Shown here: positions 5,945 through 6,714 of the stretch, piece after piece | Position numbering within the stretch: the first letter of the stretch is position 1 | How the letters are laid out: every line of letters starts with the position of its first letter | Assembly: GCA_964016885.1 (NCBI GenBank) | Contig: OZ024743.1 | Location: 192,510,001 to 192,574,000 of the forward strand | From: Eledone cirrhosa | Lineage: Eukaryota | DNA: 64,000 nucleotides | Direction: 5' to 3' | Translations under genes and position numbers: made by a program | The notes under the pieces: generated by a model | Databases searched by the model: none | The model's input: only the letters and a program-made list of their open reading frames with translations | Told to the model about the DNA's origin: nothing

Positions 5945-6663
5945 TATAGCGGAACACTCCTATGTTTTACCGGCGAAAATTCGAAACCGAATCTGAGGTT
6001 TCTCGCCTCTGGGACCATCTATCGTCGGAGATTCCCACCATTGTCTTGTCAAAAGACAACGATGATTAACGTACATACCACTTGACCTGTGACCTCAGCT
6101 TGTAGAGAGAGGAAACACAGATGGCTGCCCATAAATCAACCCATATACACATCCTTCTAACTATAGTGTTATTATAAATACAAGGACTTAGAAAATCTAA
6201 CACCAGAGACTACGAAGCAAGCAGTCCGTGTTAAGGTTAACGATGTAGCAGACCTTTTACTCTTTCTTTCTCCTGGTCTTACTGGCTCTCACCTTCCCGG
6301 CCACGGATACAGCCAGACAACCAGACATGAAACAGCAGTCCTTGAAGGGAATAACGAATAATGCATACTAAGAATAGACACACACACACATAGTAAGTTC
6401 ATCTATTCTTCCGTCTCCCTGTCATATTGTAACGTCGCATTGATACATGCATGCACGCTAGCTCGAAGTAGCTAGCCAGCAAATTAATGTAGCGATAAAT
6501 TCTGTCACATATTGTTATTGTAAATTAAATGTTGTTAACAACACAATCCTGGCATTATTCTTTTCATCAAACATCCATCAAAGAATAACAATTATCCGCT
6601 ACAATTGGTGACCCCGATATGATACGAACACACATAGCCTTCTCACCACATTTATCCGCTACA
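5945..6663 (+). mobile_element. Solo Gypsy-like LTR containing an internal LTR end and a tRNA-Trp 3'-half copy
   Basis: Termini TATAGCGGA (TGTAGCGGA) and TCCGCTACA; TSD GAGC at 5941-5944 and 6664-6667. Internal TTATCCGCTACA ends at 6603 and is followed by TGGTGACCCCGATATGATACGAACACACATAGCCTTCT (6606-6643). Confidence 0.88.
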
Positions 6664-6714
6664 GAGCCACCAACCAACCAGCCAATAAACAAATAAACAT
6701 CTCTTTTATATATA

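Follow-up and report, generated by a model that had tools for sequence, protein, structure and literature searches.

The window, the whole 64,000-nucleotide stretch of Eledone cirrhosa DNA analysed here, carries a solo long terminal repeat (LTR) with a copy of a tRNA-Trp primer-binding site (PBS) inside it and, beyond that copy, a further LTR end at which the element integrated. On balance, and only just, we consider it probable that downstream-started reverse transcription of the parent element copied the first PBS into both LTRs, a recurrent by-product that lengthens U5. Long LTRs of this kind are best read as a by-product able to ratchet U5 longer, rather than as a dedicated or conserved dual-end system. 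The evidence comes from the window copy, from its relatives in the same family (family B), and from a second family (family A) in which some elements with an intact interior bear such a structure in both LTRs.

A primer-site copy within the window LTR

The element extends over 5945-6663 on the forward strand, between GAGC target site duplications (TSDs) at 5941-5944 and 6664-6667. A single LTR, a single TSD pair and the lack of any interior identify it as a solo LTR, with the following features.

5941..5944 (+): left 4-bp TSD, GAGC
5945 (+): LTR start, TATAGCGG
5945..6603 (+): family-B LTR core (U3-R-U5), ending where most relatives end; relatives 74-87% identical
6592..6603 (+): first (inner) LTR end, TTATCCGCTACA
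6604..6605 (+): 2-nt spacer (AT) from LTR end to PBS
6606..6643 (+): extended PBS complementary to tRNA-Trp positions 76-41, CCA included; 32/36 identical, with a 2-nt insertion
6624 (+): A at tRNA position 58 (T in tRNA genes), probably an inherited reverse transcriptase misreading of m1A58
6644..6650 (+): decayed older end CACCACA (CACTACA in relatives) that closes the PBS unit; its ACA overlaps the next end
6648..6663 (+): outer LTR end, at which integration took place; 16 nt match the family-type terminus
6664..6667 (+): right TSD, GAGC

There are three ends in all, at 6603, at 6650 in decayed form, and at 6663, and the outermost is a 16-nt match to the terminus typical of relatives. The relatives that are 74-87% identical to the core are plain solo LTRs whose TSD follows the 6603-type end. 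An earlier note on this DNA had already recognised the first end, the tRNA-Trp complement and the changed base at 6624, all of which are borne out by the sequence and by alignment to a genomic tRNA-Trp gene (L101). It was also right to place the tRNA copy inside the LTR, the GAGC flanks lying beyond the second end; its span of 5945..6667 had the correct start and the TSD after the second end, but took in the right TSD, the element itself stopping at 6663. Public contigs bridge the left junction (contig comparison at the locus, 95%; the cassette stretch 6608-6735 is uncovered, which carries no weight either way) and show no empty site, and the window locus itself rests on the assembly and its TSD. 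Very abundant other repeats, with many diverged contig matches, lie on both sides of the element (5560-5780 and 6880-7154). Elsewhere in the window are a 158-amino-acid frame (890-1366, forward strand), presumably a non-LTR reverse transcriptase fragment from its resemblance, and a MITE-like element with 216-nt inverted repeat arms, 96% complementary, at 10295-10829, with a related copy at 48-346.

Set against the L101 gene, as delimited by ARAGORN, the 38-nt complement accounts for 36 tRNA positions (76-41) plus the 2-nt insertion. Of its four mismatches, one is at position 58 and the others are CpG-type; the alignment scores 51, where the maximum of 300 shuffles is 33. Because the complement contains the CCA end, which the fetched tRNA-Trp genes lack, it derives from mature tRNA. 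A tRNA gene or tRNA-derived SINE was rejected as its identity, the sequence being an antisense 3' half including CCA rather than a full tRNA body in sense orientation, and neither ARAGORN nor Rfam reported a tRNA or known RNA family in the window. Nor is a gene variant a likely source of the A at position 58: T occupies this position in 59 of 61 tRNA-gene-like matches, and the two matches with A lack the element's combination at 57/58.

Across the tRNA copies, which run to 29-50 nt, mismatches fall mainly at positions 58 and 37. Among 17 long copies, hand-picked for length (reaching position 41 or beyond) and drawn in part from a search that excluded A at 58, the mismatch counts are 5/17 at position 58, 2/10 at position 37 and 3 in about 222 free cells elsewhere; four of the 17 terminate at positions 27-28. 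This bias suggests reverse transcriptase read-through of modified tRNA. We take position 37 to be m1G37, and the stop near 26 to reflect methylated G26, in the primer tRNA-Trp; the modifications at 58, 37 and 26 of the host tRNA-Trp are assumed. The available text of PMC13191261 lists tRNA-Trp among the primer tRNAs that carry m1A58.

Most family-A copies appear to have passed the changed base on. In PPT-selected copies (those with a recognisable polypurine tract), position 58 is A in 60 of 63, G in 3 and T in none, and A58 in this family is mostly inherited. A tRNA-variant base at position 47, for which a matching gene variant exists, accompanies repaired PBSs only (2/9, vs 0/54 otherwise), which suggests occasional fresh read-through; since the PBS is mostly kept in its mismatched form (50/63), fresh tRNA copying is uncommon. 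Units of family B carry T, A and G at position 58, so that the two families may have A58 in common by descent or by convergence.

The phenomenon reaches beyond these two families. Complements of tRNA well over 18 nt follow LTR ends in several families of this genome and in 19 metagenome matches, a few of them resembling tRNA genes rather than elements. A fly CsRn1 sequence, as given in a supplement, has a decayed T-loop complement after its PBS, hinting that the extension is old. LTRs of other families at L096, L097, L085 and L099 (G000 C4, C1) are followed by 42-49 nt of tRNA-Trp complement that runs past the anticodon, and the L096 LTR is preceded by a polypurine tract. The tRNA-Trp genes themselves form tandem arrays (G000:C4:353.39-353.49 Mb, about 47 matches; C4:277.41-277.44 Mb, about 8 matches), and in genes L100-L110 the complement of the anticodon (TGG) equals that of the CCA end, an identity that could favour mis-transfer at the anticodon.

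Long LTRs and leader arrays in two families

Family A is represented in the window by a two-LTR element on the reverse strand, which served as the comparison.

3028..3380 (-): family-A 3' LTR, short form; TSD CTTC at 3024-3027
3381..3394 (-): polypurine tract
4915..4924 (-): degenerate second PBS, 9/10 nt match
4927..4971 (-): leader unit: tRNA-Trp complement of 32 nt (A at 58) and, after it, a second LTR end
4973..5324 (-): 5' LTR; TSD CTTC at 5325-5328

Within its interior, 3785-4075 is a degenerate CTG/CAG-rich repeat that is open in more than one reading frame. The LTRs of families A and B are unrelated, as the earlier note had held: the best LTR-to-LTR match has an E of 0.2, tblastx finds none, and only the PBSs match (E 1e-4). 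A single recent family covering both was rejected on these grounds.

We identified 543 PPT-linked 3' LTRs of family A and took from them, in list order, an unbiased sample of 40 loci, all on contig C1. Both LTRs are present in 34 and an exact TSD in 30. The leader unit occurs in all 35 sampled elements that have a PBS. None of the 34 two-LTR elements is of long or doubled form, and a further 27 readable 3' ends are all short. A search for second ends lacking the usual spacer after them returned 20 matches, and these, with a further search, led to five long two-LTR elements, or about 1% when set against the 543 3' LTRs. All five carry the unit in both LTRs, with an exact TSD past the second end (L150/151, ATAC; L169, GACT; L170, AAAT; L171, GATG; L176, TGAG), and at the 5' side a PBS follows that end. 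This is the arrangement for which the earlier note had proposed to test full-length elements with long LTRs. Differences between 5' and 3' LTRs amount to 1 in 419 nt (L170) and 2 in 413 nt (L171). The 5' side holds one unit in L169-L171 and two in L150/151 and L176, and the single unit, in three of the five, is followed by a weak second PBS (9/10 nt). Long solo LTRs with an exact TSD also occur (L156, L163), as do doubled leaders of two to four units with a short 3' LTR (L172, L173, L174, L175, L179). At L178, a second-site spacer is followed by a repaired tRNA copy, the 3' LTR lying outside the stretch fetched.

The embedded unit retains the PBS mismatches of the family and a tail that is not tRNA, and it was therefore copied from the element's own leader, not from the primer. 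In a FastTree phylogeny, taken as it stands rather than with a formal clade test, the seven long LTRs are scattered among 37 short ones and their common ancestor spans all 44 tips. A single lengthening event spreading through the family was rejected on this basis; given the scatter, lengthening in family A is recurrent and has founded no subfamily. The last 20 nt of U5 are an unstable region: 5' and 3' LTRs differ there at 7.1% of positions (48/675) vs 0.94% elsewhere (108/11522), an approximately eight-fold excess that could bias LTR dating. The excess peaks 9-11 nt from the end (loci L189-L228; 4973-4995 and 3028-3050 in the window). At the U5/PBS junction of L202, L085, L120 and L136 the PBS or LTR end is copied as a fold-back, and at L131 the terminal 11-mer is duplicated at the 3' LTR. 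One family-A element, L188 (G000:C14:21.37-21.46 Mb), lies inside a satellite and has been amplified along with it (13 matches at spacings of about 4-6 kb).

For family B, 40 of 1297 candidates from a DNA search were scored and 30 loci fetched. The PBS directly follows the first end in none of the 29 closest relatives; where both ends are readable, the TSD after the first end is exact in 17 of 23 and matches at three of four positions in a further 5. Pattern searches for the family-B end plus PBS returned 20 and 8 matches, and a set of 11 solo-type cassette copies with a visible start, the window included, was assembled. An exact TSD follows the downstream end in five (window, L062, L067, L075, L255) and a three-of-four match in two (L073, L078), while four show no match, two of them inside microsatellites. 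L062, L067, L073, L075 and L078 are 70-76% identical to the window, whose nearest relatives (87%) are plain. Leaders of two-LTR family-B elements are arrays of about 2-8 units, each 18-65 nt long and made up of a partial PBS with a copied LTR end after it. In L072, L074 and L252 the arrays contain the same units as the cassette solos and then a further PBS.

Two further patterns were seen in this family. In L067, L117, L252 and L256 the terminal 12 nt are repeatedly joined to a segment from within the LTR, a junction seen both in short variants of the LTR and in units of leader arrays. In two-LTR elements L068, L071, L080 and L111-L118, the sequence directly upstream of the polypurine tract is a conserved motif similar to the leader-unit end.

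Taken together, these counts divide the broader proposals of the earlier note. Integration at the downstream end holds for this copy, by its TSD, but not for the family, given the 0/29 among nearest relatives. Exact TSDs at a downstream end in 5/11 family-B solos and at the second end in five family-A elements, with LTRs of unrelated families and a scattered recurrence, speak against a single accident. Of the two forms of recurrence it envisaged, repeated generation agrees with the seven scattered long LTRs, and a conserved dual-end system does not fit frequencies of about 1% in family A and 0/29 in family B.

Possible paths to a longer U5

In the explanation we favour, plus-strand synthesis would at times continue beyond m1A58 into the primer tRNA, with errors at modified bases, before transferring to the final 10-16 nt of U5; a unit of extended PBS plus LTR end would remain in the leader. 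Leader units would next duplicate into arrays of two to about eight, with the 3' LTR still short, as the structures described above display. In approximately 1% of insertions the minus strand would begin past the downstream end and so place the unit in both LTRs; the resulting structure is seen in family A, and the priming step is presumed. The outermost end would then be used by integrase, as the TSDs show, and LTR-LTR recombination could finally yield a long solo LTR such as that in the window. Some precedent exists for the opening step, in that HIV-1 is known to yield minor products reading through m1A58 (PMC13191261, as far as its available text goes), and the second-site spacer with a repaired tRNA copy at L178 is the mark expected of priming at the second site. 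Several points count against the favoured explanation: four of the 11 family-B cassette solos lack a TSD match, most family-A PBSs are still mismatched (50/63), the downstream PBS is poor (9/10 nt) in three of the five long family-A elements, and the Ty3 PBS is described as not inherited from the tRNA (PMC5371799, section 2.2).

A different course of events would begin with normal priming at the first PBS, the strand switching after 11-16 nt to the second end on a co-packaged RNA. Such an early minus-strand jump would copy the PBS unit along with U5 and render both LTRs long with no downstream priming; we consider it unlikely, though the likeliest of the alternatives. It predicts both 5' layouts, one unit (L169-L171) or two (L150/151, L176), and calls for no priming at a weak second PBS. 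The outer end of the window copy joins its unit through the 3-nt ACA overlap, as a jump might leave it, and the excess of differences in the last 20 nt of family-A U5 points to template mixing or error at just that end. Set against this are the signature of downstream priming at L178 and the doubled leaders with short 3' LTRs, from which good downstream PBSs are available. The proposal of the earlier note that a downstream PBS lengthened the LTR accordingly stands as to structure, with the unit in both LTRs of five family-A elements, while an early minus-strand jump would give the same products as the priming itself. Likewise, a route for tRNA sequence into LTRs exists, but in family A it is not direct, leading from tRNA to leader and from leader to LTR.

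For the window copy only, the interior of a two-LTR element might instead have been lost by a microhomology deletion that joined the end of a leader unit to the final 16 nt of the 3' LTR, either after insertion or during plus-strand synthesis. The ACA overlap would be the microhomology at this junction, and the outer end fits the family-type end one base better than does the copy's own first end. A long 3' LTR is moreover found in none of the nine family-B elements in which the 3' LTR is readable, a result that also counts weakly against downstream initiation, with only about 0.3 expected. Deletion leaves unexplained the five elements of family A that combine an intact interior with a long 3' LTR, and family-B cassette solos stop at ends that are found inside leader arrays as well; the terminal unit of L067, for instance, recurs in the L252 array with a PBS after it, which weakens L067 as a deletion product. 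We give deletion a small probability. Smaller still is the chance that the extended PBS and the arrays are selected functional parts (an over-extension acceptor in plus-strand transfer, spare primer sites or decoys against tRNA-fragment silencing, for instance) and the long LTRs a side effect. Here the extended PBS of several families and of nearly all 19 metagenome matches, a few of them tRNA-gene-like, is in favour, as are the leader unit in 35/35 PBS-bearing elements of the unbiased family-A sample, two redundant metagenome matches in which a dual PBS precedes a gag-like frame, and the short primer over-extension sequence that lentiviruses keep (PMC13191261, in the text available). The two metagenome loci, L230 and L241, also show tRNA remnants upstream of the LTR end. 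Yet array units decay and vary in size (18-65 nt) and number, long LTRs have founded no family-A subfamily, and the RNA of the cassette folds no better than shuffles (z -0.60 and -0.01), giving no sign of a conserved fold. The end motif resembles a D-arm complement, but second ends copy the terminus of their own family and not a conserved tRNA-pairing box, so that such a box was rejected. Selection for the units is thus weakly supported.

The favoured explanation, downstream-started reverse transcription, can be extended to a wider and more speculative proposal, which we advance tentatively and think has a limited chance of being correct. Across animals, CsRn1-like elements may routinely read through m1A58 and m1G37 and stop near methylated G26, building leader arrays from which downstream priming feeds U5 in a ratchet of dead primer sites. 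The arrays would then be a fossil record of host tRNA modification, maybe kept as spare primers or as decoys against tRNA-fragment silencing.

Relation to the CsRn1 clade and other primer systems

By its features the window element is, in all likelihood, a solo LTR of a CsRn1-like Ty3/gypsy lineage, an assignment made for this copy by association. The marks of the clade are a tRNA-Trp PBS, a 4-bp TSD, a CHCC Gag motif and a GPY integrase (PMC2582038, PMC3630058, in the portions available). The window copy has the first two: its PBS matches the genomic tRNA-Trp gene at 32/36, and its TSD of GAGC has 4-bp counterparts in family B (17 exact and 5 near among 23) and family A (30/34). The other marks come from coding elements, the window solo LTR itself having neither gag nor pol. 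L181, L183, L261 and L275 show patchy LTR similarity to family B; against the window LTR it amounts to patches of 81-94% over 45-71 nt in L183 and L275, and to 70% over 163 nt in L181. All four encode a DUF7041 Gag and protease and have the unit of extended PBS plus end right before gag; reverse transcriptase, RNase H and integrase are present in L261 and L275. The CX2HX9CX3C (CHCC) motif is found in L183, L275 and L184, and the PR-RT-RH-IN order with GPY in L275 and L184 (Pfam RVP, RVT_1, RT_RNaseH, Integrase_H2C2, rve). Two of the coding loci have peculiarities of their own: L275 (G000:C28:46.006-46.013 Mb) has an older internal end inside both of its 98%-identical LTRs, and L261 (C1:253.42 Mb) an additional 18-nt unit on the 5' side only.

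The described members of the clade (CsRn1, PwRn1, Kabuki, AgCR; PMC2582038, PMC3630058, PMC6238403) share the tRNA-Trp PBS and 4-bp TSD with the elements studied here, and the CHCC Gag and GPY integrase with their coding relatives; the clade is reported to be well represented in cephalopods. In the available portions of these descriptions the PBS is ordinary, in contrast to the tRNA copy of 29-50 nt, the repeated units of LTR end plus PBS and the PBS-containing LTR seen here. In the open-access literature searched, we found no account of CsRn1 elements with arrays of end plus PBS or with a PBS inside the LTR. The short two-LTR copies of both families, with LTRs, PBS, polypurine tract and 4-bp TSD, resemble ta-TRIM (PMC4558846), for which a PBS of 8-9 nt suffices; that element has a single short tRNA-Leu PBS, and the part of its description at hand mentions no unit arrays like those found here.

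Second primer sites are known from other elements. Ty3, Ty1 and Drosophila gypsy have a two-part or double PBS with a second tRNA-binding site, which for Ty3 and gypsy is at the RNA 3' end (in U3 for Ty3) (PMC5371799, PMC1635307, as far as available). Those second sites are fixed and functional, whereas here a U5 end and PBS are duplicated in tandem, in variable number and rarely within the LTR; a fixed bipartite PBS would not be absent, as this arrangement is, from 29/29 family-B relatives and from all of the 34 and 27 family-A 3' LTRs.

Lentiviruses offer a parallel to the extended copy, since their match to the tRNA continues beyond the 18-nt PBS and past position 58, and minor plus-strand products reach positions 55/54 or the anticodon loop (PMC13191261, PMC8599865, in the sections available). 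In those accounts over-extension goes only to about position 54-55, and anything longer can be neither transferred nor integrated, whereas the copies described here extend to positions 45-27, have been integrated and have a second LTR end after them. Read-through of m1A58 with short over-extension in lentiviruses, and fixed second primer sites in Ty3 and gypsy, were thus known already. What the present elements contribute is a concrete and countable route by which LTRs can grow and take up tRNA-like sequence, with the intermediates (single unit, doubled leader, long two-LTR element and long solo) all in one genome. Such a route would allow terminal repeats to lengthen as old primer sites accumulate in them, and the multiple ends that it leaves confuse LTR boundary calls and LTR-based dating. 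Genomic PBS copies may, in turn, serve as a record of tRNA modifications. Compared with retroviruses, in which the m1A58 stop is held necessary for plus-strand transfer, our findings suggest that this stop is leaky, and its leakage tolerated, in this gypsy clade.
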